NCBI GenBank assembly: GCA_002344825.1
Contig: DDUN01000038.1
Coordinates: forward strand, 21,061-85,060
Length of the DNA: 64,000 nucleotides
DNA from: Candidatus Multiplicimicrobium inquinatum
Lineage (GTDB): Bacteria; Omnitrophota; Omnitrophia; Omnitrophales; Aquincolibacteriaceae
Direction: 5' to 3'
Shown: piece by piece, positions 11,514-57,100 of the stretch
Numbering within the stretch: the first letter of the stretch is position 1
Layout: each line of letters begins with the position of its first letter
Position numbers and translations under genes: made by a program
The notes under the pieces: generated by a model
Databases searched by the model: none
What the model was told of the DNA's origin: nothing
Seen by the model: only the letters and a program-made list of their open reading frames with translations

Positions 11514-11520
11514 TTTGTTC

Positions 11521-13410: not shown

Positions 13411-13433
13411 CATGTAATATACTGAGTTACATG
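13411..13433 (+). promoter_or_regulatory. Inverted repeat (candidate operator) overlapping a -10-like TATACT and the start codon of the methyltransferase gene.
   Basis: CATGTAA-tatactgag-TTACATG is a 7-bp perfect inverted repeat, and the final ATG is the start codon at 13431. An Rrf2-family regulator is encoded immediately downstream. Confidence 0.35.
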
Positions 13434-14069
13434 AAAGATAAAGACAACCATTCTGGCCCAGAGGGCACACACCAAAGTCATGCTGGTTCGCATGACGTTT
13501 TTGATAACGTCGAGATGTTCATAGAAAAATTCGACGGAGCAGAGCGGGATGAATGGCAAAAACCAGACGAAGTTATTAAGTCGTTTAATCTTCCCGATGA
13601 TGCTGTGGTAGTCGAAGTTGGCGCTGGTACAGGATACTTTGCGGTTCGATTGGCTCCGCAGGTAAAAAACGGAAAGGTCATCTGCTACGACCAATCCGCT
13701 AAAATGATTTCATATCTTGGAAATCGCGTGAGCGAACTGGGGCTAACGAATGTTGATGCTCGCAGCACTGGACCAGACGGCGGTCTGGAATTGGAGGAAA
13801 AAGCCAATCTCATATTTTCTGTCGATGTCTATCACCATCTAAACGACCGCGTTGCCTACTTCTCAAAAATTGCACAATATCTCAAGCCCGGCGGCGCTCT
13901 CGTCGTGATTGACCGAACAGAGGAGAAGGTAGAAGGGCAACCCACGGGGCATCGAGTGCCTAAAGAGAAAATTATAGAAGAGATGAAGGAGGCCGGTTTT
14001 GAATTGGCTACTGATTTCGATTTTTTGTTACCTGTTCAATATTATTTGGCATTTAAACGAGCCGCATAA
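13431..14069 (+). CDS. Class I SAM-dependent methyltransferase.
   Basis: 212 aa starting at MKDKDNHS…. Motif I is VVEVGAGTGYFAVRLA, an acidic post-I residue is CYDQS, and there is a motif II/III-like LIFSVDVYHH…LKPGGALVVID. The track ORF 13176..14069 would overlap the upstream tRNA and is rejected in favour of the ATG at 13431, which sits inside the palindrome and after the tRNA. Confidence 0.8.
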   Translation: MKDKDNHSGPEGTHQSHAGSHDVFDNVEMFIEKFDGAERDEWQKPDEVIKSFNLPDDAVVVEVGAGTGYFAVRLAPQVKNGKVICYDQSAKMISYLGNRVSELGLTNVDARSTGPDGGLELEEKANLIFSVDVYHHLNDRVAYFSKIAQYLKPGGALVVIDRTEEKVEGQPTGHRVPKEKIIEEMKEAGFELATDFDFLLPVQYYLAFKRAA

Positions 14070-18647: not shown

Positions 18648-18720
18648 GATATCACGCAGAAAGCCGCCGCGGAGGACCCAAAATAGCAAAATCTCTTTCT
18701 TGTAGTGCCTTCTTCGCCGC

Positions 18721-18749
18721 TTTACAAAAGCGGTAGATTTGCCTATACT
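18721..18749 (+). promoter_or_regulatory. Sigma70-type promoter (TTTACA-N17-TATACT) upstream of tRNA-Arg.
   Basis: Same architecture and near-identical -10/leader as the promoter at 16371-16399. Confidence 0.55.
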
Positions 18750-18788
18750 CTCGACTCTTCAAAGCCGCCCCACAGAGCGGCTTTTCAT

Positions 18789-18862
18789 GCGCCCGTAGCT
18801 CAATTGGATAGAGCATCTGACTACGGATCAGAAGGTTTATGGTTCAACTCCATACGGGCGCA
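18789..18862 (+). tRNA. tRNA-Arg (anticodon ACG).
   Basis: GCGCCCG/CGGGCGC acceptor stem. D-arm is GCTCAATTGGATAGAGC. Anticodon stem-loop is TCTGA-CTACGGA-TCAGA. T-arm is TATGGTTCAACTCCATA. The discriminator is A. 74 nt. Confidence 0.85.
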
Positions 18863-19130
18863 TATTCTTTTTCTGAAAATGACCGTCTGCAGCGCACAAA
18901 TCCACTCGCCTACGCCTTGTATTCAGGTCCTTTTGAGAAAACGAATGATAAATGGATGGAGCTGAAGTGAGCCGCGCAATTTATAGGGCTTTCGCGGAAT
19001 AAGAAACAGACCTAATGTCAGATCCGCACGCAGCGAAGCCCAGGCGCGGCGAGTGGCCGACCTGAAGTGAGTGCGGCTGATTAAGCCGACATGAACAAAA
19101 GGCGCCAACTCCATACAGGCGCATATTTTT
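18863..19130. repeat. Repeat family X copy 1, about 245 bp, inserted after tRNA-Arg. It ends in a partial duplicate of the tRNA-Arg 3' end (19107-19123).
   Basis: The element shares TTTTCTGAAAA…GTCTGC, CCTTTTGAGAAAA, a GATGG…GAAGTGAGC block, a TAATGTCAGAT block and the 25-mer GGCGAGTGGCCGACCTGAAGTGA with 22179-22460. Its end is …GGCGCC followed by AACTCCATACAGGCGCATATTTTTCTG. That matches the tRNA's own 3' end plus flank (AACTCCATACGGGCGCATATTCTTTTTCTG). Confidence 0.65.
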
Positions 19131-19230
19131 CTGTTTATATCTTCTCCAGCGAATATAATTTGTTTGTGACCCATTTTTTTGAGAGCCCTTTTTTTAGACT
19201 GATTGTTTTTAAACAAAATCATTTTGTGTT

Positions 19231-33953: not shown

Positions 33954-34397
33954 CTAAAAGGTTGAAACCATAGGCTTGGAGCCACTAGGTTCTTTTTTTC
34001 CGCGCAGTGTAAGAATGCTGGCTCCAAGCATTCTGCATAAGCTGCTATTTTCTTGTAGCAAGCTTTCCATGCAGGCCGGATCTACTTTCTTAGAATCTCT
34101 CAATAAGCATAGCCAGTATTCGCTTTCGTTGGCAGATTTTAATGCATACGAAAAAAAATTAGCAAAATCTCGTTTTGAGCTACTTCCTTTTGCCTCAATA
34201 ATATTTGCACCAATTGAAGTTGCTGACCGCAATAATTGCTTTGCAATGATCTGAGCGGCAAAATCTTTTTGTAAAATTTCTAAAAAGCGAATGATTCTAA
34301 TCGAAAAAGTATAGCTTTTTTCCTGTAATAAGGTTTTGGCTTTTGGGCCATGGCTTTGACCTTTAGCCTTTAAGTTTTGGGCTGATTGTGCTTCCAT
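33954..34397 (-). CDS. Four-helix-bundle protein (TIGR02436 / 23S rRNA intervening-sequence protein family).
   Basis: The core …IRFLEILQKDFAAQIIAKQLLRSATSIGANIIEAKGSSSKRDFANFFSYALKSANESEYWLCLL… is the hallmark of this family. The annotated ATG overlaps the upstream gene by 28 nt, so the true start may be internal. Confidence 0.75.
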   Translation of the reverse strand: MEAQSAQNLKAKGQSHGPKAKTLLQEKSYTFSIRIIRFLEILQKDFAAQIIAKQLLRSATSIGANIIEAKGSSSKRDFANFFSYALKSANESEYWLCLLRDSKKVDPACMESLLQENSSLCRMLGASILTLRGKKEPSGSKPMVSTF

Positions 34398-36034
34398 ATT
34401 TCCTCCAATTCAGGGTTTGCGTTGTAAATTCTTTCTAACTGTTTCGAAAGATATCCATCCGTTAACGCATCAATGAGCGCGGTCAATTCATCCAGCCTAA
34501 GCAAGCGGTCCCAATGAGATTTTTCATCCTCCGCGGGCGCATAAACGATCTCAGCTTGCAGGCGGCGGCGTTCATAAAAAAGACGCGTGGCTTCTGAAAG
34601 CAAATCGTTTCTTTGGTCTACCATCAGTTTTGAGCGCGAATCAATTGACGTTTGGCTGGAGCTGAAAATAAAATTCCCCAAATCCCATGAGAATCCGATA
34701 TCGGCTCCTCGGTCTCTGTCCCACGGACCGTCAATGAAGCGGTCGGGGTCGTTCGTGCCGGCGCGATCCAGGTCAATGTTGTTGGATGTTCCCCAGTCTT
34801 TTCCCGCGGAAACATTGGGCAGTAAGGCCGCAACGCGCGATTGCGCCTGCCAGCGTTTGATTTTTCCGTTGCCGGTATCGGAGTAACGAATGACTCTTTT
34901 GTGAATGTCACGTGCGGAGGGCTCGAGCCGGATGAGCTTATTGAAAACAAGTGCATTCTCAGCGCGGATTGGTTCGGAAGAAGATTTTGCAACCCACTTC
35001 CAAAGACCTTCTGCTGTAACCGCGAGCAAGGCGTCCGAAGCTTTCAAATGGAGCGTTGAAAAAACATGTGTTTTTGCAAGTCCGTCATTTTGAATTTGCC
35101 ACTTGCCGTCGGAGTTGTTGAAAATAAAGAATCCATCTTCGCCAAGGCCGATCAATTGTTTCGTCTTAAAATTCCACGCAAGGCGCTTCGGAAGAGCGTT
35201 GCGCAGTCCCGAGCCGGAGAGCGGCTGCCAATCTAAACCGTTGCGGCTTTGATAAACGCCTTTGGATGTGGCTAGATAGAAGCTTTCCTCTGTTTCGATA
35301 AAATCAAAGAAAGTTTGTTGCGAAGCCAGTGCCCCCTCATCTTCAAACTCTTTAGGGAGATCATCCGTCTCGCTTCCGGTTTGATCAAAGTCAAAAACTT
35401 TTAACACGGTTTGCACGGAGTCATCCCCCGCAAGACGCCAGTCTCCGTTAGCCGAAAAGAAAAGACCGATGGAGCTTTCGGCAATTAAAAAAACAGGCAA
35501 AGAATCCGCAAGCTCGGAATGCTTGCGCCAAGCCGAAGTATCTTTTTGTGTCGACCATAGCCCGCGCGCGGTTCCAATCCACCAAGTGTCTTTTCCCGCA
35601 AAAAAAGTAAGCGGAGCTTTTTCTTCATCGCGGCTTTCATAAATGCGTTTGGCATTGCGCGTTTGAGCAGTCCATTCAAAGACCGATTGTTTTGTTTGAA
35701 TCCAAAGACTTTGATGCGATTCGGAAGAAGCGGAGATCCGCGCAATTTTATCCTGCGAATGAGACAGTGAAAAGACAGTTTGCCAGTGGCCGCTTTCATT
35801 TTTAAAAACAGCATGAGGAGTTGCCGCGTAATAGTCAGGGTCTGAATTAGGCACGGACGCTAAATCAATTGCCGCTTCTGTGGAAGGCAATCCGGAAACT
35901 TTTTCCCAGGCCGGAAATCCGGACCCGGGCAAGGTAAGCAATAGCACCAATGCGATCCATTTCCACTTTTGGGAACCGGGAAGGGGTTTGACTCTGGTGC
36001 TTGGAGCGTCATAATAAAAGTGATTCATATGCAA
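34370..36034 (-). CDS. Secreted hypothetical protein (554 aa), possibly with a beta-propeller or BNR-like repeat fold.
   Basis: An N-terminal signal/TM segment is present (WKWIALVLLLTLPGSGFPA). W/G/D-rich repeats follow (…KDTWWIGTARGLWST…, …SKGVYQSRNGLDWQPL…, …GLWKWVA…). The C-terminal ~150 aa are charged. No catalytic motif was recognised. Confidence 0.5.
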   Translation of the reverse strand: MHMNHFYYDAPSTRVKPLPGSQKWKWIALVLLLTLPGSGFPAWEKVSGLPSTEAAIDLASVPNSDPDYYAATPHAVFKNESGHWQTVFSLSHSQDKIARISASSESHQSLWIQTKQSVFEWTAQTRNAKRIYESRDEEKAPLTFFAGKDTWWIGTARGLWSTQKDTSAWRKHSELADSLPVFLIAESSIGLFFSANGDWRLAGDDSVQTVLKVFDFDQTGSETDDLPKEFEDEGALASQQTFFDFIETEESFYLATSKGVYQSRNGLDWQPLSGSGLRNALPKRLAWNFKTKQLIGLGEDGFFIFNNSDGKWQIQNDGLAKTHVFSTLHLKASDALLAVTAEGLWKWVAKSSSEPIRAENALVFNKLIRLEPSARDIHKRVIRYSDTGNGKIKRWQAQSRVAALLPNVSAGKDWGTSNNIDLDRAGTNDPDRFIDGPWDRDRGADIGFSWDLGNFIFSSSQTSIDSRSKLMVDQRNDLLSEATRLFYERRRLQAEIVYAPAEDEKSHWDRLLRLDELTALIDALTDGYLSKQLERIYNANPELEEIWKHNQPKT

Positions 36035-36201: not shown

Positions 36202-39200
36202 TTGATGGGACGGCATCAGCAGTTCTTAAAATTTGTGGCCACAGCTGTCATCATGTGTCTTTTGGCGCAGGATGCGGCGGTGGCATTGCCATCGCAGACT
36301 ACAGACTACAGACCACAGACCACAGACTCTGCGGAAACTCCCGGAGTTGAGGGATCGCATCTCCGGGAGTTGGGCTGGTTAAGCACAAAAAACCTTGGAA
36401 CGATTGATGAAGAGTTCCAAGGCACGAACGGTAAAAGCATTACCTTCATTCTCGATGCCCACGACTCTCTCGACGCGCAAAAGAATATTGTCCGAATTAT
36501 TCAACGGGCAACAGCCTCAGGCCGGGTTCGAACCGTCTTCGAAGAAGGTTATGAGGACGAGCTCAATACGGATGAATGGTTTGGCGATATCCAAGATGAT
36601 CAAATTCGCCGCAAAGTTGCTTACTATTATTTGGATCAACTTAAAATTGGCGCAGCAGAGTTTGCGCATATTAATCGGCAGAGCCGATTAGGACAAAGAA
36701 CAAAGGACAAAAAACAAAGCACCGATTGGCAATTAGTCGGCGCGGACGACAAACAAGCTTATCTTGAAAACGTGCGCGCTTTCGGTGACTCTGAAAAAGT
36801 CCGCGCGAAAATCCTGCGTGACACGCAAGCCATTCAGCGCGAACTGAAAGCTGTAGGCGCTAAGCAGCTTACGCCCGAAGCTCAAAAGTGGATTGCCGAT
36901 TATCAGCGCTTCCATGAGCATGCGCTTCCTCTGCTTGATTATTTAAATCGCTGGCTTAAATTTATTCCCCAAGAAGCTTGCCCGCTTTTACGCCGTATTT
37001 TGTCCGCCGCGCAAGATTTAGAACTTGCGCGCAGTATTCAACGGATCCGCGCCGCAGAAGTTTTAATTGAAATCAAACAATTCGAATCCTCACTGGAAGC
37101 GCATTTTTTTGAAGAAAGACAAACCGCCGAGATTTGGCAAGCACAGAAAACCATGGGTTCCGTTGAAAAATTGACTAATCTTAAAATTTCAAGTCATGAG
37201 CTGGATGAGCTTAAGCAGAATTTGAAAATGTGGGATACGGAAAGCCTTGCGCCCTTGCTTGCTCGCGCGAAGAAAAATCCTGTCGTGCTTTCCAAACGCT
37301 GGGAAACACTCATTCAAGACGCGCTGAAATTTTATGAGCTTGCGCATAAAAGAGATATGGCGGTGGAGAGAGCTCTTTTAAGTTGGAACAACTCCTCGGC
37401 TCCGCTCAGGGCAAGCGAACAAGAGCCAAAGGACAAAGAAGCGGTTTTGGTGTTCGGCGGTTTTCACCGCGAGGGAATTACCGAAATTTTGCGGCGCAAC
37501 GGATTTTCTTATACGGTTGTCATTCCTAAAATCACCGATTTTTCCAAGCGTCACCAATTGCTTTATCGCGAAGCTATGAGCGTTGGACCACGGGGCTCGG
37601 GCCACGGAGCCCGCCAAATGGTTCAAGCCGCGCGTCCGCTTTCAGGTTTTTATGATCACGGCTTTCGTTATGAAATTCCGCTTGTGGCGGCTCTCGCAAA
37701 AGAAAATCCAAAGCTAGATCAAAGAAGCTTTGCCTTGCTTGTCGAAAGAACACTTTTAGAAAAAAGTTCAACAACCGTGGCGCGTGGAGTTAATGGCGAG
37801 AATCTGAGCCGTCCCTCGGCTTCTCCCAACACGCGCCGCCTTTTGTTTTCAGCTCGCTCCGAATCTCGAAAAAAAGCAGAGAAGGTTCTCGATTATGAAG
37901 AAATTGATTTTGGGACTAAAAATCGTTTTTTAAAGAAAGCTTTGTCCACCTACTTAACTCCCAAGGTGTTTGAAACGGGCGGATTCATTTATAAATGGTT
38001 CGGGATCCAATATTTCATTTTTTTACTTAATCAATTTGACCGTCAAAAAATTCTACCGCGGTTACCCGTAAGCCTTTCCACCCCGCTTACGGATTCAAAG
38101 CCCGAAGAAGAAATTTCTGTCTCGGGACGAATCAAAATGGGATCTGCTTTAGAGATTATGCATCTCGCGGCATTTTTTATCATATTGGCTTTAGCCTCTA
38201 TGGAGCATTTAAGTGCAGATAATTTTGGAGCCACGTTATTGCATTTGGGAAATGTAATTGCAAATGTGTACCCCATTTTTGTTCAACGCTATGTTCGGGC
38301 AAGACTATGGCCTCGATATATTCAGATAAAAGAAAATGAAACCAACCGTTCCGAAGCCCGCGCGGGAACAGCCAAGAAGGAAACGGTGATTCGGAGCCCC
38401 GAAGTGCTGCGCCTTGCTTTGGGAAAATTCAATATTTTAAATTCCGGCGCACTGCATGAGTTGTTTTCTTCTCAACAAACAAGCCTGCAAAAGCTTACAA
38501 AAGCTGAGCGGGACCTTTTAAGGCGTATAGCGCTAATAAGAGACTCAACGAAAAAAGTTATGCGTAAAGAGAAGGGTGAGAATGAATTTCATGGGCCCTT
38601 TGCTCCTGCAAACGTGAGCCAGGTGATGACGGTTTTGAAGCATCTTGGAGCAAAACAGGGCGAAAAAATAATGGATCTGGGTCACGGCGAAGGGAGCGTG
38701 CTTTTTGGTGCGGCGGCGCTGTTTGGTCTTCAGGGTCTTGGCGGGGAGCTGAATTCCTATCTTTACAGGAAAAGTGCCGCGATTCAAGCGGAGCTGGTTG
38801 ATGCCGGGATTTTAGACGCGGGCGCCGTCGAGCTTAGAAAAGAAAACTTTAATCAGCTTGATCTTCGAACTGCTGATTATGTTTTCTTTTTTTCATTCGG
38901 AGGAAAAGTTGATCAGGAGAAGCTCTTGCGAGAGTTAAAGCCCGGCGCCAAATTCATTCTTTTGGGACTTAAAAACACCAATTGGGAGCAGGAGGAATTA
39001 ACCGGCTACTCTGATTTTTCAAAATTATTGGAAAACGGGCAGTTTGAACTTGTGCGATTTCCGGAACTGAGAACTTGGGTTTTCACAAAGCGGTCCGCGC
39101 GTTCCGAAATGCGCGAAGCAACTCGCGCGCAGATTTTGGAAATTTTAAGGAATTTCGAGCAGTTTCGTGAAAATATAAAAGTCAGCGAGCCTGTTGTGTG

Positions 39201-42200
39201 GGATTTAGAGGGGGTTGAATTAAACCGCGCACGGCCGCTGTTGGTGCTTCCTGATATTCATGGCGACCTGGAAGGCATGCTCGCCATGCTTTATTTCAGC
39301 GGCGTGATTGACCGCGAGGGCTTACCGACGGGCAGCGCGGATGTGATTCAGCTGGGAGATGTTATTAACGGGCGCGAGCAATGGTTTGAAGCGGATGATT
39401 ACCTGCGTTTTTTACAGCAAGAATTTGAGGAACGGGGACTTAGTCTGATTCGCCTGGCGGGCAACCACGACGTAAAAGTTTTGAAAGCCTTTGATCGCAA
39501 GAAATATTTTTTGGAATGGGTTTATGGCCCGTCCGAACGGCAGTTAAGCGGGTTGCGGGAATTTTTTCAGCAGTATTTATGGAAAAACCCGGGCAAACAA
39601 GGCCGGCAACTATTAAGAAAAAAGTTTACTTCCGTCGGTCTGCCGCTTCATATTTATTTTATTTTGGAAAAAGCGCGGGATTTTTATCAGGCAGTTAAAA
39701 ACGATATTCAAACCGGAAAAATCAAAGCGGCGGCAAGATTCGGCAATCTTTTTGTCACACATGCCGGATTGTCCCCGGCCGCGATGGAAGAGGAGTCCCT
39801 CGGTGCGGATTTTGATGAGAAAGCGGACGTTCTCAATCGGGCTTTTCAAGCATGGCTTTTAAAAGAAAGCAAGCCAAAGCAAGATGAGAGAACTGCAGAC
39901 GACGAAACAGTCGATGAACGCATCAAAATCATTCTGAAAAAAGCTCTCGGAATGAAAACAGCCGAAGGATTTAAAAAATCAAGCGTTTGGCAATTGACAG
40001 GGCATCGTCCTAAACGGCATAAACGCGTGAGCTCTGATGAGCGAATGATTTCCGCCGACTTTGATTTAGCGCGCCGCTTTGAAGTCTCCGAAGACGATCC
40101 TGTTTATCCGCGCATTTTATTTTTGAAGGAAAACCAGTTAATCGAGCAGGAAATTAAATTACCGCGCTTTGAAAGTCCGCCTTCGCCTGCAGATGACGGG
40201 GAAACATTGAAAGAAGAGTTTGTTGCCCGTTTTTCAACCGAAGAATTAAAAGAGTTTGAAATAAAGCCTGTCTCCCGAATTCGACTGATTAATTTGATTC
40301 AGGCCGCGATTAGCCAAAGCGGTGTATTAGAAAGCGCGTCCATCCAAAACGACTCCGTTTTTGTGAGAGTCATTGAGACAGCCGCCCACGGGGAAAGCAG
40401 CATTACGTTGCCCGCGCAAAATTATCATATTGGGGGGTATCATTCGACACTGGCAGAAGCTTATTTACAGCAAAACTATTTGGCGGGCGATGAGTTTTTG
40501 AACACGGTGCACGCGATTGAAGTTTGGCGCCGCTCCGAGGCGCGTTATTTGGAAGCGGAAAAAATTTACTTTGACAGCCCTGAATTTTTGAGCGCTACGC
40601 ATTATTTTAATGAAGCCGTCATTGTGCGAGACGAAGCCGGGACCATTCAGCCTATGGACTGGAACAAACTCATCACAATTTATGAAAGACTGCGGGGCGA
40701 TGATGTCAATGCCGAGTATACAGATGAAGATCGGCAGCTGAGGCTTTCGCATGAAAATGAGCCGTGGGCTCGGGAATGGCTTCAAAATATAAACCGGCAG
40801 GATTTAACTGGCGACGAAGCGCTTAATTTAGGAGTGAAAATCTACCGCGATAGCAGCGAAGGCGATGGCAGAAATCAGATGTTTGTAAAAAAAGCGGGCT
40901 TTGACCGGGTTCGCCCCCCCAAAAAAGCAGGAGCTTATTTTGAGCGGCACCCTGCCGATGGGCACCATGGTTTGGCTTGGTTTTTAATGAATTTTTTCTT
41001 GATGCGCAATGGATACGCTCCTTTTTATTTTAAGAATGAGAAAGAGTATTTGAAAATTCCGATCGACTATTACAACCGTGATGAAGGCGCGGCTCGTTTG
41101 CGTCAGCTTCTCCGCGAAAGAGTTTTTTCAGAAAACAAAGGCAACCGTTCCGAAGCGCGGACAAGCGATGAAATCGGGCTCCAACAAATTAAAAATACGG
41201 AAATTGCTTTGACGCCGCGCGCGTTTCACGGCCGAAATTGGCTTCGCTATCCGTGGATGACCACAAGAAAAAAAGTTTGGGAAGTTTTCGGGCTGCCCGA
41301 CCCGCGCGATGCAAAACCGGCGCAGCAAAAAACATCGCGCGACATCACCTTTATTAAACGCAAAAGTGACCGTCATCCGGTTTGGGTGATTTTAGAAAAA
41401 GACAAAGTCCGCTTCGAAGAAAAATTTGCAAGAGAATTACTTATGCTGCGCGGCAAAGCCCGTTCCGAATCTCGAAACGACCCCAAAAAACAGGCGGCGG
41501 AGTTTTCAAAAAAAGCGAATGCCATTATCAAAGCACGGGGCAATTTAGAAGAAGCCGCGCGGCTGGCGGAAGAAGCCATCGAACTTGATTATACAAATGC
41601 ATTTGCGCATGTGGCGCTTATTCAGGCGCGGCGGGGGCTGGGTCAGTATAAAGACGCGCTTGAAGCATTTATCTCAGCAGAGCGGGATATTCCCGATAAC
41701 CAATACGTGCGCGCAATGTTTCCGGGTATTTTAAATTCTTTCGCGGCTCAATCAGCGGAGCAAAATCGGCTTGATGATGCCATAGACACTTTCCGAAAAA
41801 TTTTTCCGGATACGCCGGAAGAACTTCAAGAAAGCGTTAAGTTAACGGCTATGCGGGCGCGTGAAGCCTTAGCGTATCAAGCCATTGAAAGAGGCGATTT
41901 TGGAAAAGCGCTTCAAATAGCCGAGCAAATCAATCAGATTTTACCTAGCAATCAAACAACAGATCTTATTTTAGCGACAGCATTTATTCATCAAGGCCAG
42001 CCCGGGCGCGCAGAAGCACAGCTTGATTTCTCGCGCAGAAAATTTTTAGCGCGGAATCCCCGAAGTTATTTAATTAAAGCTTTGAGCGCGGCACATAAAC
42101 TTCGGCCGAATGAAGCGAAGGCAATATTAAATGAAGCTCAAGACGTATTTTCAGCTGAGAAAAGCATTGTGGGGGTGATTCAAAAGCACTCGAAGCTGAT

Positions 42201-45200
42201 TGAAGCCGGCGCGGATGTTGGCGAATTACTTAATCAAGTAAATCGAGATCCCGTGCTTGCTGCGCGCGAAGAAAGAATTATTGCCGGAGTTTCTCGCTCC
42301 GAATCGCGCCGGCGCTCTCAAGATGAGGGAGAAAAAATTTTAAAACTCCATACGCTTTATATGGATGTGATGCGCAGAAAAGCAAATGCGTGGAAAGATG
42401 GAGCTGAAAAAGTAGAAAGCGCGGGTTTTTTAGTTACGGACGTTGGCTATTATCCGATTGATACGGACAACGAATTCGAACACTTGCTGGCGATTTTCCC
42501 CAAAATTCGTGATAAGACAAATTTTAATCAACCCCTTCGCTTTCTTGATTTAGGATCAGGCGCCGGCAAGCTTTTGATACAAGTGCTAATGCTGGACGCC
42601 CATCTTAATGGAGTTGGCATCGAATATGATCAGGCGCTTTATGAAGTTTCTTTAGACCTCGCTGAAGAAGCCGCAAAACAAAAACTTATTTCTCGTGAGC
42701 GCGCGCATTTTTTAAAAGGGGACTTTTCTGTCCCTGAATTTGAAAAAGAAATTTCTTCCGCGGACGTTCTTTTTCATTATCAGGCAAGCTCATTTGACCC
42801 CGCGCTGCTTGAACAAGCATTGATTCGCTCGATGCGCCCAGGAGCCAAGCTTTTAGTATACGGGTCATCTCGTGATTATTTCCCAAAACTATCGGCGCGC
42901 GCTGGTTTTGAACGGGCGTTTGATGAGACAGCGCGAGTGACAACTTATAAAAGAAATTTCATGCCGCGCGAGCCCATCTCTTATCAAGATACAGCCGTTG
43001 TTTTTGTGCATACCGCGGGCATGGGGGATCACTCACTGCCTTTGGCGCTGGATAACCGGCGTGTGATTAAAGATGCCGTGAAAGCCATGCAAAATTTAGG
43101 CGGCAAAGAACTTGAATTTTATATTGACGGTCATCCGAGCTATTTGCCGCCGCGACCCGATCGCATTCGTTCCCGACAAGAAAACACAGCCGCGCTGACT
43201 TCGCCCTTTAGCTACGATTTTGATCCTGTCCGCAATCTGCGAAGATTTGTTATGGCTGGGGGAGAGTGTGAAGCTTGTTTTCAAGCCGCGCTCACTTCGC
43301 TATTGGAAGAAAGCAGCGGGCAAGCAGCACCGAAAGAAATCCATTTAGCCGCGGATGCTGTGTACCAAGTTGTTCCGGTCCCAGATGAAGATGATCTTCG
43401 CGGAGTGCTCCATGAATCAAAAGCTGTTTCCAGCGAGCAGGTTTTTGACATGGCAGCCAAAACGTTGGCTCGAAACAGATTTACTTCGATCGGCAAAATT
43501 TCTCGAGCTGAAAACTTTTTGACCCAAGGCACATTCTCAGAAAGCTCCCAGGTTGTTGTTTGGGACAATTATCGTGAAATGATTGATTGGATTCGTGCCG
43601 ATCAAAAGAGATCTGAGGCGAGAGCCAATTTCAAAGCTGTTTGGAAAAGTGCGACAACCGCGGATGGCCAAATGCGGATGGCTTTGGGCTTGTTGCGCCG
43701 TGTCGAGCAATCACGAAAAACGCGCGGCTTAGATCTTCCGGACAAGCTAACTGAAATTTTAAAAAATGCGGATGAAATCGGCGTCGGACCGCATGCGCAG
43801 CTGAACAATACCATTGCTCTTTTGCGTATTTTAGGAATTCACGTCGCTTTTAAATTGATCCCCGGCCTTGGAACGGTAGGCGCGGCGGGATTGGGGATGA
43901 TGGCGCTGAGTGGGCCTTGGTTTTTTGCGGGCCTTTCTCTTTTTATGCTGCAGGGTTTTTTGCGCGCGGCAACCACCGCGTGGTTCTTAACGGGAACGCA
44001 ATTGCCCGCAAAAACAGGGCTGGCTTTTCTATCGGCAATTCCGGCGCTCGGAATTTTGGCGGTTCCGGTTTATATGCTTGCTTTAAAAGATCAGCGCGGG
44101 CTGGGTTTCGCTATTTTAGATTACTTTTGGAATTCCGCTTGGGACAAACTTCTTTTTCCATCATTGATGGCTTTAGGAGCGGGACTTTTTTGGGTATTGC
44201 GTTGGGGAGTGAATCTGGGAGTCTTTGCTTTAATAACAGCGGCTTCTGTTATTTTTTTTACTGGGTCAAAATACATGGAATGGCGTGATCAGGGACGGAC
44301 TGTCTTGCAAAAAACAGTTGAAGCTGTTTCGGTGATAGGCGCGCTTGCCGGCTTTGGGGCAACGATCTTCTATTTTGGATTTTTCAGTCTGGCGACACTT
44401 TTTGTTTTTACCGCAATGGCTGTTCTTTTTAAGGGACTGCAAATATTTTTTGATTTTCGAGAGCGGCTTTTCCGTAAATCTTTGAGAGAGCCCGGCTCGC
44501 CCGCAGCGGCTGAGAAAAAAGAGGGCGATTTTAAAAACCGCTCAGAAGAGCGAAGCGCATTAGAGATTTTTGATGAAGCGGCGGACAATTTATTAGCTTA
44601 TCCAAAAGCGCTTCTTCATTCACGCGGCTTAGAGCCCTATCTGGATGCGTTCGACCGCGAGCATTATGCCTGGGATGAAACGCATCAGCATTGGGCGTCG
44701 AAAGACTTTCATCCGACGATTACGGGCGCGAAGCGGCTTATTTTAGGGTCTTGGGAAGATATTCGGCGCGCCTCGCCTGGTGAACACGCGCGCATGAAAA
44801 ATTTTGTCGCCATTCGTTTAAACACAACAGAAGGAGCGCGCAGTTTTTATGCTTTTGATGACCACGGCTGGTCGCTTCAGGCTTATGCCGAGGCGCATTG
44901 GCGCGGAGAAATTCCGGCGCTCGGCAACACACAGATATTTATAGACAAGCACGGTGATGATCGAAAAGTACGTGACGGGCAATATTACGCGGAAAGGTTT
45001 ACCGCGATACTCCGTCAGGATGCCGGAACGAACAATAATATCGAATTTGATATGGGCGGTTTTAATAACACGCTTTGGTCTTCGGGGTTTATTCCGAAAG
45101 AAAATCATCATCGATATCATGCCCGCATGAGCTGGCTCAAGGAAATGATGATCGGTTTTCCAAACAATCGGGCTGTTTTGCTGAATGTCGATACGGACGT

Positions 45201-48200
45201 GACAGAGTTTATCGTGGGTGATTGGGGGAACGAAATGCCGCTTGGTTTGGGAGAAGAGGATTTTGAGTCGCTTGCCGTTGATTTAACCAATTTACGCGAT
45301 CAATACGGCTTGACTCCGCTTACGGCGCATTTCACCACAACGCATTTTGAAAATGAAAATTTGGCAGATTTTTCTTTGCATTCAAACCGCATTCAATACG
45401 GCGACACCGAGCTTGCGCGTTTTCTTGCCCGCATCGCTCCGTTTATTTATTTTGTGAAAGATCAGCCCGTCGAATTGCGCGATCAGGCGATTGCGCAAGC
45501 GGCGCAAGAACATGCCGCGCAATGGAAGCAGGATTTTGGCGCTAAATTTAACCGTTCCGAAATGCGGGCGGAAATCATTTTTCCCGATGCGCAAAAAGTG
45601 AAAGATGTTTTTGAGAAAGCGGAGGGATCCGCGGTGCTTTCAGAGGAAGACCTTGAAACTGCTGTTCAACAAGCTGTGGCGGAAAGCCGTGCGTGGCTTG
45701 CCGACCGTGTTAAACAAGAAACGCCCGAAAGCGAAAGACGGGCCATCGCGCTTCAGGCCGCTGAAGAAAAAATTGACGAAAGAACTTTGTATTTAGAGCC
45801 CGAGCATTGCGGTCAGCAATGCGGTTTTTCTTCGGGGGATGTCAGAGACAGACTGTATTCTCTTTTGGGGGCGAAGGTCAAAATTCGGCGTATTCAGGCT
45901 AAAGATGGCTTTGGTGTTGCGCAAAGCCAAAAACACCTTCTAACACTTATATCGTTGCCGGACAAATCCAAAATTTTCCTTATAGATTTAACTTTCGCGC
46001 AGTTTATGGATCGAAAGAACAGCCCCTCTCCTTACATTGGGATGCAATTAAAAAGCAATGCGCCCGATCAGCTGAATACGCTTTTACGCCGCGGCTATGT
46101 CGATTTAACCGAGAACAAAGACTTTTTAACGCAATACGCTCAATCTTTTCTATCTGAGGCGGAGGATGATGACGCGCATTATCCTTTAGAGCATTTTCCC
46201 GCTGAGTATATTGCTGATCACACCGATTTGATTTCACAGCCCATGAGTGATTTTATAAATATTCCGGCAACCGCCGAAGAGAATTTCAAAAAATCTTTGG
46301 AAGAGCGCGGAACAAAATTTCTCATTTTAGCAAAAGAGCGGCGTGAAAGAATTTGGAGGGGATTTTTAAGCTTTTACCGGAATAGCGCAGGGCAGCAAAG
46401 CAATTTAAAAACAGAGGATGGCCGGTTTTTTGAATTTAGCGCGCGCTCCGAAATGCGGAATGATGAAGTGGGCAACCCTTTTTTCGTAATGGTTCACGGG
46501 GAATCGCGATATTGGCAAAAATTAGAAAGCGAGGGTTATTTTTCAGAAGAAGACAGGTCTTTGATCTTTGACGCCGTGGATGGATTAATTCGTCCCGATG
46601 CTTCAATTTTAGATTTAATGTCAGGCAGAAAAATTAGCTTTTCAAAAAAGCAGCGAAATATCACCGCCCTTGGATTGACGGAAGCTATTCTGCGCCAAAA
46701 TAAAATCGACGGAAAGATCGATAATTTTGATGTGCAGGACCTAAACCGTAACTCTCAACTACCTTACGCTGATAAAGCATTTGATAGCGTGGTGATTTCT
46801 TTTGGCATCATGTATCTGACGCAGCCGGCGGAGGTTTTGAAGGAAGTGCGCCGTATTTTGAAGCCGGGGGGCAACTTGATCGTGATTTACGCCGAAGATT
46901 CCTGGGCAAGTTCTTCCGCGGTTGCTTTATGGAACCAACCAGGATTATTCCGCTATCGGGGAAGCCGTATTTATGGGCCGCCGTTTCTTTCGGATGATCA
47001 CCAGGAATTCAGTCAATTTTATGGCCAAAGCGATGTTTTAAACTTTTATCTGCGCGGCGCAGGCTTTGAAATTACGGAGCGAAAAAGAGTTTTTGGAAAA
47101 AAAGACACGCGGGTTGTTGGTTCTGAAATGTTTGCTGAGATGGAAACGCAGAATATTTACCAAATTGTTTCTTCCGGCTCGTCCGCGCGATCTGAAGCGC
47201 GGCTGGATGAGTTGCTGGATAAAAACCGCCGCAATGCGGATGAATGGAAAGAAACGATTCGTCTTATTAAAGCCACTTTGCCCTTGGCCGAGGAAGTGAC
47301 CCCTAGGATGATTGTTGAAGCACCGGCGGCAAAAGGAAAATTGCGTTATCAGACTTTAGTTATGGCGGTTCATCAAACCGGAGGAGATTATGCGAGCTTT
47401 GGACTTGATGCGGAGGAAAAAAACTCAATTTCTGAAAAAGAAACCAAAATCAAAGCGGCAGCTCGAGCTCTTCTAGCCGAAAAGAAAAGCCCAAGTCCTG
47501 AGGCCGTTTTGAGTTATCTTCAAAAACCAGCACATTTCTTTAAAGGGTTAGATGAAGGCGCGCTAAAAAAGTTAGGGCTTGTTTTTCCTGAAAAGAAAAA
47601 GACGGCGGATGAAAAATACATGCCTATTTTAGAAGCGCTTGTCCAAGCAGGAGAAAAATTCGAAACGGTTCGTGAGATTGCTATCGCGGCCGCAGGCGTT
47701 CCTGAGAGCTACGTGAAAGAGCTTGGCGCACCTAAGCTTACTGCTATGGGACTTCTCACAGGGGGAACAAACCCATATGAAAAACTTTCGCAAAGATTTC
47801 GAGTTGCTCGCCAAGCTAAAATTAATGCAGCGCAGGCTAGAAAAACCCCCGTACGAACAATTGCCGAGCTGTCTGAAAGCACAGGTATTCCAGCCACAAC
47901 TTTAGCGAAATATACCGCGCAGCAGTTAGAAGAGCTTGGTTACATTCCGCGCCCCGTCAAGCTTGAGCGCGCGGTAAAAGCTTTGCTAGTTGAAAATCCC
48001 GGGCAAATTATTTCTTATGAAGTATTGGCTCAGAAAATAACTGAAATGGGCCTTGAAGATCTGAAGCCAGAGCAGCTGCGCGAATGGAATGCTTATCAAA
48101 AGCCGCCTTTTACCGCACAGCCCGGCTGGAGGAAGCGTTTCGAGCCGATCATGAAAGCCGTTGAAGTACTTGGAACGAATGATAGCGAATTAGACTTATT

Positions 48201-51200
48201 TTTTAAGAACTCACTTGGCGTCCAAACCGTCTGGATTTGGCAGATTGAATACTTTGTGGCTAAAGCGGCGGATATTTTAAAACAAAACCCTTATTTTCGA
48301 AGTAGATGGAATGAACAAACAGGAAAAGATTTTACCGCCGCGGTGATGCGCGCGCATACGGTTACAGAACCGGAAAAAGCCGAGCTACAACAGATATCCG
48401 CTAAAGACGCGGCTTTAAAATGGCTTGTTGCCACCGGCGGCGCAGAAACACTTAAACCGGCTGGGCCCGTTTCTACGATTCAAATTTCTTTGGAAGGCTT
48501 TTCCGAAAACGGTCAAACCTTGTATGAAAAGTATGAGTATGAAAAAACAAACGGCCTGAGTGCTGAGATGCTTGTTGAGCAGCTTGGTTTTTCGGATCAG
48601 CCCGGAGCAAAAAGAAGGCTGACGGATATTAAACAGGTTTTAATTGATGGCATTGATCAAGGCCGGTCTTGGCATAAAATCGGTTTGTCTTCCCGGACGA
48701 GCGCCTTAGTTATTAGGCATAAAAACTATCAAAGGCCGCAAGCCTCTCTTGCCGAAAGCAAAACAAGCTTGAATGTCGAAAAAACCTCTGTTCCGAGAAG
48801 GGAATTAAAAACAAAACCATCTCCGTCTCGTGCTACGGGTCGCCGCGATGCCCGATATTGGACCATTGCCATGCTTTCTGCCGCTCAGCGTCTTGAGGCC
48901 GATAAATTCTTTGACGTGGCTGAGAAAGCGATTCAAGCAATGAGGCAAGAAGGCGTTCGCAAAGATTATCTAACAAGTTTTACGCGTGTTTTTGATAAGC
49001 ACGCTCGGCAAATGGATCTGCTTAGTCAGGAACCCGAAGATCGAGAAGCTTATCAGCGGTATCAGTTGATTTTAAAGTTAATAGGAGAGCTTCAAGCTTC
49101 TGCGCGCTCCGAAACCCGTTCGGTTCCCGCGGAACAATATTTTATTGTTGGGGATATTACCCGCGCGGATTTGATATGGTCGGAATCCGCGATGGGCTTA
49201 CCTGAAAGCGATGATCCTGAAAAATCAAAGCGCCTTTTAGCCATTCGTGATGCATGGAATTATTTGCGGCCGATTCAGCGTGAAATCATTCGGCAAAGAC
49301 ATGGAATGAGCCAACACAAATCGACGGATTGGAAAAGTATCGCAAATCGGATAAATCGACACAAGGTTGGCATTATTCAGCTTCACACACGCACACTTGA
49401 ACAACTTCAAAGCTTAGAAAATGGCGCAATGGCATTGTTTCAAGACACAGGTATTCCGTCCAAACATCTTCAAGAAGCTTTTAATTTGTTTTCAGGCAAG
49501 CCGCTTCATCAGTTAATTTTAAAATTAGAATACGGCTTGGATGGTATTCCGCGAGAAGAAGATGACACAGCCATCGCCAAGATTTTAAAAGAAAAAGTAA
49601 GCGCTGAACTCGATCGTGGGCAAGTCGCTGACCTCAGAAAACATCTGCTGAAGCAACTGAAAGTCTTGGCGGTAGAAAAGGGATGGACCGATCTTGAAAT
49701 CATGCAAAAAAGAAAACGAAAGAAAGCTGCGCCAAAGTGGACAGAAGCTGAGCTTGAAAAATTTATGCGCGAAAGATCCGATGAAGGACTTGCGGCCAGA
49801 GGCGGAGTTATTGATGGTGGTTTTGAGTATGTATATAACTTAATGAGAGCTAGGCATGGAACATGGGAAGCCGCCCTTCGATTTTACGGAAGAAATCCCG
49901 AAGCAATCCGTTTGCGCTCCGCCTTGCCAAACCGGCTGGATGAAGCTGCCGCCTTACAAGCAGCGGCAATCTCTTCGGTGAAAGCACAGCCAGCGACAGC
50001 TCTGGAAACGCCTGTCGTTGCGCCCGCCATAGAAACAATAATTTTAATGGAAGAAGAATATTTTTATATTCAAGATCTTATTTCTCGCGGAATAACTTTG
50101 GCAGAAATGGTGCGCAGATCCGACGGGCATCATCTTCGCCCGATTTTTGCAGCGATTATGGGAATCATCAAAGTCACTGCGCCGATTTTTGAAAAATATT
50201 CAAATTTTGAAAATCGAGAAACCGCGCTCAAAGTTTTCAATGACCTCAAAGAAATTGAACTTCGAATTCAAAAATTGCCGTCGATTCCGGAACCGGATTT
50301 GCCGAGGCATCGCCCAGTCTCTGCCGTGCCCGCTACGGCGCCTCAACCCGTTGTTTCGCCGGTACCGCTTTCGTCCCATGACAAATTAGCGCAAGATTTT
50401 CAGAATGGTTTGCGTACTATCCTGAATGCCTTGGAGAGCTTTCAAAGCCGCTCAATTCATAATCAGGAAGGATTTGACCGCTTTAAAGGAGAGCTTGCCG
50501 GTTTCCGCGACCGTTTCGACAAAATTAAAAAAGCACTTGAAGAAGAACCGGGTTTAGCAAGCCGCTACGCGCAGATTCAAACGCAGTTGCGGCTTTTTGA
50601 AAATGCTTTGCGCGAACCCGAAGCCAAATTAAAAACAGCCAAGACTCGTTTTGAGGGCGGTGCAGTTGCTCGCAAATCGGCGCTATCTGTGCCGCCATTG
50701 AATCGGCCTCGGCCTTCAGTTTCGAATGTTGCGGCCGCTGAGAGAAAGCATGGGCACGGACACTATGCGCGGGCAAAGCGTTTAGAAAAAAACGAAAAGC
50801 CGGCACAGACAAATGATTGGCGCACAGCATTAATTAAAACCGGAAAAACGAAAGAGGCGCTGGAAGAAGATTTACTTAATTTGGAAGAGCTCTTGTCTCA
50901 AGAGCCTCAGGATATTTCCGCGACGGAGAAGCCCCGCATTGTCCGACTGGCAGAAACCCAACAAGCATGGCTTCGTATTTTAGCGGCGCTTTTTCTGCCT
51001 TCAGAAAAGCCGCGCGCGGAGCTAAGCAAGGCTGCCAAAGAATTTGAGCTGCTTTTTAATCAGGATGCGCAGATTACGCGCGACAAACACCGCATGTTAA
51101 TGGCGGACCCGCGTTATCAGGCTTATGATGCCGCAGTGTCGCGTCTCAACGATGCTTCAAAAACAAGACTTGTTCCCGCAGGCAAATCGGTAAACGGCGC

Positions 51201-54109: not shown

Positions 54110-57100
54110 ATGAAATTTAATATGCGCAAAATTTTTACCAATATTTTCATTCTTATCTTCCTAATTAACTCCGTCTTCCCCGCCCAAGCCCAATTTGTAA
54201 GGACAGAGCCAAAAGCTAAAACTTTCAGCGGAGTTGCTTTTCAAGCTATTTCTGTGCCCGAAAGTTTGGCTTTTAAGGATAAGAGCTTCCGCGGCAAAAA
54301 ACGCGAAGCGCTTTGGATTTTAAATGATGCCCATGCGGTTCCTTCCGCGCAGGAATCGATTTCACAAACGTTGCAGTATTTACAAAAAGAGGCCGGACTC
54401 AATTTTGTGGGAGTTGAAGGCGCGACAGGTTATTTTGAAACCACGCTTTTGCGTGCTTTTCCTGATTCTGAAAAACTGGAACAAAGCGTACGTGAGCTTT
54501 GGGGAAAAGGGGAAATTTCAGGCGCGACTTTGGCGGCTCTCACGAGCGGAAAGCATGCGCGTTATTTTGGAGTTGAAACATCCGGACTTTATGAACAAGG
54601 GTTAAGAAATTATTTTACCGCGAAGAAAACAGCGCCGGCGCATCAAGAAAAACTTAACGCAATACAGGCTCAAATAAGAGAGCTCAAGCAAAAATTATTT
54701 TCGAAGGAGCTGCGGCGATTTGACGATTTGCGCTTGGAGATGAAAACAAACTCTGCGCAAAGCTTGCCTCTCATTTTAGATTTGGCTTCGCGCGAGATCG
54801 CTGATGATATCAGCCAAAATTTTCAGCATCTTTTTGCGCTTGCCCAAGAGCTGAAAGGGAAACACGAAGTTTCATCCGAGGCTTTGTCGGTGTGGAGCCG
54901 CGAAATCGGGCTTAAGATTAAATCTCAAGCGGAACAGAAAAAATGGTCTGAAAAAGAGCAGGCGTGGCAAACCGGGAATTTTTCGGACGCCCAGTTCGCG
55001 GCTTTTGCGTTTCAGTTTTGCCGAGAGCAAGGCTGGGCTCCGCGAATTCCGGAAGAATTACAAGTTTTGGCCCGACGCGGTGAAACTCTTGCGCGCATGC
55101 GATCCAAAGTTTTTGTCCGGGAGTGGGAGCAGCTCCTGGTTCGGCTTGAAGTGGCTTTTGCAAAAAACCAGATAGAACGAGACCTAATGGTTTTAACGCA
55201 TCAAGCTGAACTTTTAAGCGACTGGCTTCGTTTAGAGCTTTCAAGTGAGGGTTGGAAACGGGCCGTAAAGCCATTCTCTTTTGTTTCCGACTCAAAAATG
55301 AAATTGCTTTCCGCGGACTTAGAAAGTCTGCGCCAACAGCTGGCGGCGTCCGATCTCGCCCGCTTTTATGAAAATGCTGAAGCGCGGGAAAAAGATTTGA
55401 TTGAAAACACACTGAAGCAAATGCGCCGTGAAGGACAAACAACCGGAGTTTTAATTGCGGGCGGTTTTCATACGGAAGGTTTAGCAAACAAGCTCGAGCA
55501 GCGGGATATTTCGTATTCGGTTTTAACGCCAGCCATCGCGGAGCTTCCTGCTGAGAGCCGCTACGATGCGCTTATGCACGGCGATGTCTCGTGGAAAAAT
55601 TACTTGCGCGCCGAGAACAAACAAATTCAGCTGTATGAATCTTTCGCGCGCGCTATGACGCATCAGCTGCTGGATTTGGAAAAACAACAAAAAGACCCGA
55701 TACGCATTCTCGCAAATTATAAAGCTTGGCGTGAACATTTAATTCGCGGTATTCACGCGGCTGACGCGAAAAGGAATTTACAAGCGCTGGCGCTTTTGGA
55801 TGAAATTGTTCTCGAGGCTATTTATCCGGATGAATACGCGCCGCTTAAACAAAACTGGAAAAAAACTTTTTCTAAAATATGGCCTGTTTTAACGAGACTT
55901 AAAAAAATCGGAAAACTTAGCGCGCCCTCTGCCGGCCCGGCGTTCTCCGGAGCGACAGCGATGTTTGCTTTGGGCAATCCCTTGGTGCCGGAGGCTCCTG
56001 TTATTGCGATGCCTGGGGTGGAAGCGCCCACCACTTCTCCCGCGGTATTCCCAAGCGAAACCACCGCGCCGACTTTGCCGCGATCCGAAATGCGTGTGAT
56101 GTCGCCGTTGATGGCACATATAAAAGAAGGCACAACGGATTTATTTTTTGTTCACGCCGCCGTTTCTTCTTTGTTAGACAAGCTGACCGAACGGCATGAA
56201 ACGGAACCCGTTTCTTTCGAAAATATTCGCGATCATTATCGTTGGAAATATTCAGAGCGATATAAGCGCCTCACCGAAAAAGGATTTGTGCCCGCTTTGG
56301 GTCTTCAAATGGAGCTTGCCGATGAACTTTTAAGCAACGCTCTTAATGCTCTTTCCGAAGGCGAGGCGAGCCTTTTTATAAAAAATGAAAAGGGATATTT
56401 TCCGCGCAATCCGCGGGCTTTGGCAATTAAAGGAGACCACGCGGCTTATATTCGCCGTGATTTGATCCGAGCGATTGAAGTCGGCGGCAATGGTTTTAAA
56501 ACGGTTATTCAGGATTATGTGCGGAACGCGAATGAAAGTGAATTTTTGAATCCCATCGAGGGGAAGTGGCCGATTCTTAAGGCTGTGTTGCTTTTAGAAA
56601 AAAGACAAAGAGAAAAACTGCTTCGCTTGCTTTTGGAAGAGAAGACCTTCACCAATCTGCCGCTTGTGCAATCTATGATTCTTATGCTGCAAGCCGATGA
56701 TTCCCTCGGCTGGCTTCGTCAGCAGATAATTGAGAGCATTCAAAAAAAGCAAGGGGCTGTTTCTGTTCCGACAAAAAATAAAAATTTAAAGATATTCGCG
56801 TTTGTTTCAAAAAACAGTGTTCGTTTTGTTTTGATTAAAAACGCTTCCGGAAAAATTATTGATACGGGCGTAGAAAATCTTGGAATGGCGGATCAGGGAG
56901 TTGTTTTAGCTGATTTGTTCAGAGGGGGATTAAAACTTGAAGACGTTAACGTGCTTGAAGTTCGTAATGCGGTTACCAATGCGTTTTACAGCGCCTATGC
57001 CGTCAGCGGTATGATCCGCAACGGGCTCTCGGTTTTTATTCCCGCAGAAACAAATGAAGAGTGGCAGGTTTTGGATTTCGTCCATCGATCCGAGACGCGG

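Follow-up and report, generated by a model that had tools for sequence, protein, structure and literature searches.

An R-S-E-x-R pentapeptide separates exchangeable modules in a giant Omnitrophota protein

The 64-kb window analysed here (the whole stretch of 64,000 nucleotides) comes from an Omnitrophota bacterium and carries a giant gene, g1, which consists of a single plus-strand open reading frame (ORF) at 36202..52665. Read from a TTG codon, g1 encodes 5,487 amino acids (aa); an ATG follows at codon 2, and this ATG at 36205 is the probable start. The protein is built of 16 modules, and the pentapeptide R-S-E-x-R stands between neighbouring modules (Table 1). The modules to which a family could be assigned are enzymes, repeats or membrane segments. 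A sequence-only reading, made before any database search, had drawn attention to positions 38540-42900, where it saw two DOT1-like methyltransferase folds and a PPP-type phosphatase inside one protein. This stretch corresponds to g1 aa 780-2233 and spans modules 3 to 8. The motifs quoted in that reading all lie where it placed them, within one ORF, and its residue numbering agrees with that of g1. The domain calls were correct and the interpretation drawn from them over-reached: the locus is of interest for the motif that punctuates the protein, for the variants of this motif in other lineages and for modules that behave as cassettes.

Table 1. Features of the window (nucleotide positions) and recurrent pentapeptides of four related loci (aa positions).
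Feature	Position	Strand	Description
g1 motif starts, copies 1-8	37855, 38347, 39100, 40531, 41146, 41461, 42295, 43609	+	R-S-E-x-R
g1 motif starts, copies 9-15	44539, 45553, 46444, 47188, 49105, 51274, 51853	+	R-S-E-x-R
Example motif copy	38347..38361	+	RSEAR opening module 3
Module 1	36202..37854	+	Signal peptide or anchor (aa 11-29) and conserved N-terminal domain of ~450 aa
Module 2	37855..38346	+	CrtO-like membrane acyltransferase domain; Pfam CrtO E 4.1e-11
Module 3	38347..39099	+	RSEAR, low-confidence linker of ~47 residues, methyltransferase 1 core at aa 805-966
Module 4	39100..40530	+	aa 967-1443; PPP phosphatase, catalytic part ~aa 1010-1290, plus C-terminal extension
Modules 5 and 6	40531..41460	+	No Pfam or PDB match
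Module 7	41461..42294	+	TPR repeats; Pfam TPR_19 3.8e-12, TPR_14 5.5e-9
Module 8	42295..43608	+	Methyltransferase 2, Dot1-type core at aa 2096-2259, then C-terminal half of ~200 aa
Module 9	43609..44538	+	Cluster of several hydrophobic segments (hydropathy)
Module 12	46444..47187	+	aa 3415-3662; third methyltransferase, generic Methyltransf_11/UbiE type; Pfam 9.3e-11, 1.1e-10
Module 16	51853..52665	+	Conserved C-terminal family module ending in QVFAASA; homologous to the L005 h2 C-terminus
g2	54110..61930	+	2,606 aa; second family member, two genes downstream of g1
g2 motif starts	56081, 57086, 61028, 61295	+	R-S-E-x-R
Divergent 554-aa gene	34370..36034	-	Position immediately upstream of the giant gene conserved in 10 related loci
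L046	First copy aa 536		RAExR, 9 copies; N-terminal domain ends aa 521
L038	First copy aa 571		RPExR, 5 copies; N-terminal domain ends aa 559
L040	aa 570, 1678, 2706, 3091, 3284		GFG[AV]A, 5 copies; N-terminal domain ends aa 556
L061	aa 545, 1253, 1573, 1697, 1932		G[QK]SLG, 5 copies; N-terminal domain ends aa 441

The R-S-E-x-R motif as a module boundary

Fifteen copies of R-S-E-x-R occur in g1, where 0.156 are expected from its composition and no more than three appeared in any of 2,000 shuffles. The second family member, g2, has four copies against 0.054 expected (P 3.4e-7), and no R-S-E-x-R was found in the other credible genes of the 64-kb window. The family was surveyed in 79 related loci, each covered as far as about 10 kb downstream of where the N-terminal domain matched. 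The 59 family ORFs of these loci (158,722 aa) contain 315 copies of the motif, compared with 15 in the non-family ORF segments of at least 300 aa from the same loci (192,191 aa). When the commonest 5-mer pattern of each family ORF was sought in an unbiased way, RSE.R or one of its sub-patterns came out for most of them. Near-variants are rare in the family (RSExK, 3 copies; KSExR, 6; RTExR, 5; RSDxR, 3; compared with 315 for RSExR). Position 4 of the motif is L, A, V, M or T; half of the copies are followed by A, S, T or G, and one fifth are preceded by A. The codons of the motif vary synonymously and their wobble positions vary widely, no conserved bases were detected beyond the 15 that encode it, and the constraint appears to act largely at the protein level.

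Four related loci (L046, L038, L040 and L061) lack RSExR, and each has its own recurrent 5-mer at the equivalent places (Table 1). Since some lineages use RAExR or RPExR, the serine of the motif is not essential, which makes a role as nucleophile or phosphorylation site unlikely. The motif thus has the behaviour expected of a recognition site that changes in step with its reader. Both AlphaFold models, of modules 1 and 3, show low confidence beside the motif (predicted local distance difference test, pLDDT, <50): the last 27 residues before the first motif are affected, as are residues 1-47 of module 3, which are modelled as disordered. This places the motif in flexible sequence. The input alignments of these models were shallow, with 7 and 3 sequences.

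The N-terminal domain defines the family. It spans about 450 aa, contains the invariant residues D-A-H, E-E-G and G-G-F-H, and comes after a signal peptide or anchor in all members; the first motif usually lies no more than about 100 residues past the end of this domain. A scan of one genome per species gave 310 tblastn-confirmed relatives of the N-terminal domain, and those with a name are almost all Candidatus Omnitrophota metagenome-assembled genomes (MAGs). The AlphaFold2 model of module 1 has a pLDDT of 74; the domain has no PDB sequence match and no Foldseek match in the PDB at E <= 0.001. Its commonest Pfam match is PF04187 (ChaN family, Tiki superfamily), found in 4 of 46 members with a best E of 1.4e-5. 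DUF5694 is matched by three of the 46, and TraB_PrgY_gumN is matched at E 0.028 in a distant member (L074). These weak matches hint at a relationship with the Tiki/ChaN/TraB superfamily, whose Tiki and TraB members are metalloproteases that carry GxxH motifs in pairs.

At the C-terminus, 20 of the 26 motif-bearing ORFs with a real stop terminate in [S/A]-A preceded by hydrophobic residues, compared with 14 of 255 non-motif ORFs that end in AA or SA. Examples are AASA in g1 (52642-52662), SSMA in g2, TSA in P0003 and HSA in P0040. Within g1, x-x-A precedes RSExR at 7 of the 15 junctions, six of them being x-S-A, so that the real end of the protein looks like the first half of a junction. Such [S/A]-A-COOH ends also recall C-terminal recognition tags. 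The second member in the window fits the same frame: it opens with a signal peptide (AQA|Q), its N-terminal domain is divergent and it ends in LISSMA. One of its modules is 1,314 aa long, and neither a Pfam match nor a predicted membrane segment was found in g2. The architecture of the family is a signal peptide or anchor with a conserved N-terminal domain, a variable string of modules, and a conserved C-terminal module that ends in [S/A]-A.

Whole modules are exchanged between genomes, with the motif as their boundary. Besides the N-terminal module, seven g1 modules match other genomes, and for six of these seven the start of the best match coincides exactly with a motif on both sides. Several of the matches that start at a motif also stop just before the next one. 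Module 8 corresponds to L006 aa 1440-1877 (80% identical), and the next L006 motif is at 1878; module 11 corresponds to L006 aa 1161-1437 (50% identical), and the next L006 motif is at 1440. Module 9 matches L006 from aa 3363 and module 10 matches L007 from aa 746. L006 is the closest relative of g1, being 68% identical in the N-terminal domain and preceded by the same upstream gene order. The two loci share the N-terminal domain and their flanking genes but differ in the order and content of the modules: in L006 the homologue of module 11 comes before that of module 8, and most other modules are different. Among 24 cross-locus matches that span 120 aa or more and lie outside the N-terminal domain, 10 have their start within 12 aa of a motif on both sides; the control with random positions gave 0. 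The modules have a median length of 293 aa (interquartile range 203-478).

Module 3 has two copies in the L005 locus, both carried by the second of two ORFs. These ORFs (2773-9864, 2,363 aa, and 10001-13552, 1,183 aa) have reading frames that overlap by about 175 nucleotides and lie in different frames; the split could reflect a frameshift that is genuine or that arose in assembly. Cassettes similar to those of g1 occur sporadically in other motif-punctuated giants of the family, with Dot1-type modules in L053 and L023 and PPP modules in P0003, P0040 and L066. The two methyltransferases and the phosphatase of g1 are thus three exchangeable cassettes and not a fixed functional trio. As the motif marks these modules as interchangeable cargo, their co-occurrence in one protein is to be read differently.

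Methyltransferase and phosphatase modules

In module 3, methyltransferase motif I is IMDLGHGEG (aa 823-831, 38668-38694), followed by ADYVFFFSFGG (aa 891-901) and LKPGAKFILLG (aa 912-922). In module 8, motif I is FLDLGSGAG (aa 2114-2122, 42541-42567), and the strings KGDFS (aa 2172-2176), ADVLFHY (aa 2187-2193) and RPGAKLLVYG (aa 2212-2221) follow. The sequence-only reading had placed a conserved block about 75 residues after motif I and taken this arrangement for that of DOT1 histone H3K79 methyltransferases. The measured spacings are 68 and 73 residues, and DOT1 (PF08123) is indeed the top Pfam family of both modules. Module 8 (aa 2032-2469) reaches 32.0 bits (E 1.1e-7), above the curated gathering cutoff of 23 bits, while module 3 (aa 716-966) falls just under it with 20.9 bits (E 2.9e-4). 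The generic families Methyltransf_31, Methyltransf_12 and Methyltransf_25 rank below DOT1 for both. A DOT1 profile hidden Markov model, one of the two profiles proposed in advance, thus supports the assignment of module 8 above the cutoff and that of module 3 just below it.

The nearest relatives of these modules are prokaryotic. The best PDB sequence match of module 3 is the Sulfolobus protein-lysine methyltransferase aKMT (5FA8, phmmer E 2.6e-7), and module 8 gave weak matches to 5BXY, YjhP and DOT1L. We built a profile (A7) from seven such methyltransferase modules of this locus and related loci. Against the PDB, it matched 5BXY at 2.2e-12, aKMT at 9.1e-10 and the H3K79 methyltransferase 9NE1 at 4.7e-6; cyclopropane-fatty-acid synthase (2e-5) came ahead of DOT1L (about 2e-3) and yeast Dot1 (4e-3). 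The methyltransferase core of the module 3 model (residues ~90-250) has mostly pLDDT 70-93. With this model, the Foldseek search was led by aKMT (5JWJ at 7.8e-9), yeast Dot1, DOT1L, Trm11 and 5BXY; 751 chains were matched at E <= 0.001, and other class I enzymes lie within about two logs. The equivalog NF041081 of NCBIfam (archaeal protein-lysine N-methyltransferase) scored only 19.4 bits (E 8.9e-4) where its cutoff is 200 bits; by sequence, module 3 is a relative of this group and not a member.

The archaeal enzyme aKMT4 has been described as having a KMT4/Dot1-family catalytic core (PMC4639711). With the Dot1/KMT4-core enzymes (aKMT4, 5FA8/5JWJ; Salinibacter 5BXY; Dot1/DOT1L), the two g1 modules have in common the class I fold of S-adenosylmethionine (SAM)-dependent methyltransferases and D-L-G-x-G-x-G; they differ in being embedded in a giant protein. 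We read modules 3 and 8 as short prokaryotic Dot1-core methyltransferases of the aKMT4/5BXY type, so that the proposed DOT1 affinity stands and the likeness to eukaryote-type DOT1 does not. Their predicted substrates are probably protein lysines.

Between the two methyltransferases, module 4 carries the three strings on which the phosphatase call was based, PDIHGD (aa 1017-1022, 39250-39267), GDVINGR (aa 1052-1058) and GNHD (aa 1087-1090), together with two further ligand motifs, VTHAG (aa 1185-1189) and LTGHRP (aa 1265-1270). All six PPP metal ligands are kept (D1018, H1020, D1053, N1088, H1187 and H1268), and they fall on invariant or near-invariant alignment columns (DxH, GD, GNH, H, GH). 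The other profile proposed in advance, Metallophos (PF00149), found nothing in module 4 itself: no Pfam family, Metallophos included, matched at E <= 1. However, HMMER gave 145 relatives of the module at E <= 1e-3 in a representative library of 1.84 billion proteins, and Metallophos is matched by 25 of the 25 relatives aligned with it. As a single sequence, module 4 matched only the Shewanella cold-active protein-tyrosine phosphatase in the PDB (2Z72/1V73, E 0.01). With the family profile, 2Z72 was matched at 4.6e-38, RLPH2 at 4.8e-12 and PP2A and calcineurin at about 1e-10, followed by BSU1 and PP1. These similarities support the earlier call of a PPP-like enzyme at this place and identify it, by sequence, as a divergent PPP-family phosphatase of the Shewanella-like (Shelph) type. 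Neither outcome that the sequence-only reading had named as refuting it was observed, since the methyltransferase modules do show DOT1 affinity and the phosphatase has its metal-ligand set.

The divergence lies in the catalytic motifs. The Shelph phosphatases (1V73/2Z72) are the best PDB match and have the six metal ligands in the same order, whereas motif II in g1 is GDVINGR in place of GDVIDRG (N1056, G1057, R1058) and GNHD replaces GNHE. The canonical GDxxDRG is thus missing, the catalytic aspartate being an asparagine and the phosphate-binding arginine being shifted by one position, and the predicted phosphatase may have changed or lost its activity. Three small stand-alone Shelph-type phosphatases (P0065 at aa 152, P0086 at aa 129 and P0100 at aa 135) contain RSE[RE]R about 40 residues after GNHE, which is probably a coincidence of that subfamily.

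Possible roles of the motif

The architecture described above is much more secure than any reading in terms of processing. For the motif, we favour, with a probability of roughly 0.5, a role as an inter-module processing or recognition site. A factor specific to each lineage would recognise the pentapeptide, and this reader would most likely be a protease that splits the long precursor into individual module proteins; it is cleavage at the motif that we infer here. As the one part common to all members, the N-terminal domain would be the foremost candidate for the reader. Once freed, the methyltransferases and the phosphatase would modify proteins as independent enzymes, either at the cell envelope or at a contact with prey. 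More tentatively, R-S-E-x-R together with RAExR, RPExR, GFGxA and GxSLG may form a processing code of long Omnitrophota proteins: a polyprotein would replace an operon, it would possibly be cut by the Tiki/TraB-like N-terminal domain, and its cassettes would be freely exchanged.

Several observations weigh against processing at the motif. No protease domain was recognisable in any of the 16 g1 modules at Pfam E <= 1. The Tiki/TraB link of the N-terminal domain consists of weak matches in 4 of 46 members, and neither the PDB profile search nor Foldseek confirmed it. Distant homologues of this domain outside Omnitrophota have no RSExR, and in the five examined no other clear recurring motif was found. 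Modules 4 and 8 each contain two domains with no motif between them, and 14 of the 24 cross-locus matches do not start at a motif in both partners. With a signal peptide and no predicted membrane segment, g2 looks like a fully exported protein, whereas g1 has internal hydrophobic clusters; the modules of g1 may lie on different sides of the membrane, so that one reader would need access to both. Finally, the first two codons of the motif, computed on the copies in the window and 310 copies in related loci, are biased. Arg1 is CGY in 81% of copies, compared with 45% in non-motif Arg-Ser pairs, and Ser is TCN in 96% (TCC 47%), compared with 60% (TCC 20%); the glutamate and the last arginine follow background usage. 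A general codon-pair effect was rejected as the cause because the non-motif Arg-Ser pairs are at background usage, and a purely peptide-level signal does not predict such a preference.

This codon bias would be better accommodated if the motif were mainly a signal in nucleic acid or translation (a recombination handle, an mRNA processing site or a tRNA-dependent decoding site) and the peptide its by-product, and the clear shuffling of modules at the motif points the same way. We consider this unlikely: the wobble positions show wide variation and conservation ends with the motif, amino-acid identity is far stricter than base identity, fifteen partly degenerate bases seem few for homologous recombination, and Seymour et al. 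found no catalytic RNA in giant ORFs (PMC10066038). A somewhat doubtful but more substantial alternative is that the protein stays uncut, as a membrane-anchored multi-enzyme scaffold that acts on proteins or the envelope of the same cell; the motif would then serve as a linker element or docking site. SAM-dependent enzymes require a cofactor that is cytoplasmic, the hydrophobic clusters inside g1 could serve as membrane anchors, and the Pfam search for a protease in g1 was negative. Many long Omnitrophota proteins have also been read as anchored in the inner membrane with their enzyme domains in the cytoplasm (10.64898/2026.06.07.730766). However, a passive linker needs neither four invariant residues nor the replacement of the motif lineage by lineage, and g2 has the same motif with a signal peptide and without a membrane segment. 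A docking role for the motif is still plausible.

The sequence-only reading had proposed a host-directed function, in which a secreted effector would methylate H3K79 or other host proteins through its DOT1-like modules and dephosphorylate host proteins through its PPP module. The top Pfam family of both methyltransferase modules, the place of yeast Dot1 and human DOT1L among the leading structural matches, the PPP family of the phosphatase and the N-terminal signal peptide are in its favour, yet we find it very unlikely. In the profile search, 5BXY and aKMT are far ahead of DOT1L, and the neighbourhood of g1 is a conserved housekeeping one with no sign of an island. Because the organism is an Omnitrophota bacterium, from bioreactor sludge, and both enzyme types have prokaryotic members, the eukaryote-directed reading is unsupported. 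Omnitrophota cells are ultra-small, and a predatory or parasitic way of life has been predicted for them; the only member studied in enrichment culture preys on archaea (PMC10066038, PMC12583861). That the long ORF is an assembly or annotation artefact, fusing separate genes, is hardly credible. The L005 locus does have two ORFs in different, overlapping frames where the window has one, but g1 runs for 16,464 bases in one frame without a stop, and its 5,486-aa product is also called on contigs of separate ENA, ENA+NCBI and JGI records, the sample behind these contigs being a bioreactor-sludge metagenome; a Logan contig carries a 5,455-aa version. In addition, ORFs of more than 3,800 aa run to the end of the fetched locus in dozens of MAGs, and the periodicity of the motif spans the entire ORF.

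The nearest functional analogues of a processing or recognition site of this kind would be found in MARTX toxins, viral polyproteins and the demarcation motifs of polymorphic toxins. The MARTX toxins of Vibrio and relatives likewise have conserved N- and C-terminal regions around a variable effector array that is reshuffled between strains, and their effector domains are released by cleavage at short inter-domain sites. They carry glycine-rich Rtx repeats and a cysteine protease domain that is activated by inositol hexakisphosphate and cuts after leucine. In contrast, Pfam scans of the 16 g1 modules found neither Rtx repeats nor the C80 cysteine protease, and the motif, the N-terminal domain and the phylum are different. 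Viral polyproteins are also encoded by one long ORF with a short conserved junction site, and this site differs between lineages together with its protease. However, g1 is chromosomal and bacterial, it stands beside housekeeping genes near dnaA, and Pfam detected no protease in it. In polymorphic toxins, a short peptide marks the point where cassettes are swapped (VENN in CdiA, PxxxxDPxGL in Rhs), as in g1; there, one motif precedes one C-terminal toxin, whereas up to 15 motifs delimit an array in g1.

Long and giant ORFs are a signature of Omnitrophota, and whether their products work as single chains or as cut pieces is a question of the field. The published giant proteins of the phylum are multi-enzyme ORFs with methyltransferases (10.1101/2023.11.21.568195, 10.64898/2026.06.07.730766). 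West-Roberts et al. (2023) described a domain of such proteins as structurally like 5BXY and listed Ser/Thr phosphatases among the shared domains; they suspected cleavage from the presence of C39 and S8 peptidase domains and stated that information on the cleavage points was lacking (10.1101/2023.11.21.568195). In our literature check, which is incomplete, a boundary motif and shared terminal modules were not mentioned in these two studies or in PMC10066038. The Archaeovorin-type giants and multi-enzyme metabolic clusters belong to the same phylum and also tile unrelated enzyme domains in one ORF, with methyltransferases, membrane segments between domains and poor sequence conservation across genomes. 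At 5,487 aa, however, g1 is far under the published thresholds (>30,000 aa; >=10,000 aa), its gene has 16,464 bp where the definition is >90,000 bp, and Pfam did not find C39, S8 or SecA-like domains in it.

A strict boundary motif that changes with lineage would split these long proteins into units for structure prediction. It would also let existing proteomes be searched for termini at defined positions and make processing testable by mutagenesis. If the processing reading is true, these proteins would be the bacterial equivalent, at chromosomal scale, of the way in which viruses use polyproteins.

Other modules and the genomic setting

Hydropathy of module 2 shows one strong and two weak hydrophobic segments, and the hydrophobic segments of module 9 are probably transmembrane. 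In module 5, the string HPADGHHGLAWFLMNFFLMRNGYAP at 40948-41022 (aa 1583-1607) resembles a degenerate Fic motif (HPFxDGNGR...) and its following helix; a Fic domain was rejected, as the module has no Pfam or PDB match. In module 11, EHCGQQCGF, KHLLTLISL and IFLIDLT (45802-45990, aa 3201-3265) are spaced like the Cys-His-Asp triad of papain-like enzymes. The idea of such a protease came from reading these strings, and Pfam and the PDB give no support to it. A word-indexed protein search with modules 3-8 returned P0001 only; with module 8 it returned nothing, and the search also missed its own protein.

The genes that flank g1 encode YidC, DnaA, DnaN, GyrB, GyrA, SerRS and a quinol NO reductase, as well as DUF4301, phosphoglucomutase, an ABC transporter, CorA, RlmN and YchF. 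Directly upstream, the divergent 554-aa gene keeps its position in the 10 related loci with 33-76% identity. A hydrophobic segment lies in the N-terminal part of its product, which also contains strings resembling Asp boxes (SRNGLDW, NSDGKW); family searches with this product gave no match, and it may be a functional partner of the giant protein.

The window starts at the chromosomal replication-origin region, as indicated by the gene order YidC (on the minus strand), DnaA, DnaN, GyrB, GyrA and SerRS at 1154-12997; dnaA lies about 30 kb from g1. Two plus-strand genes at 16503-18647 and 19231-21504 encode proteins of 714 and 757 aa that are rich in E, K, Q and A, appear coiled-coil-like and have no family match. 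The AT skew of 0.22-0.31 at 16503-21504 is explained by these two proteins.

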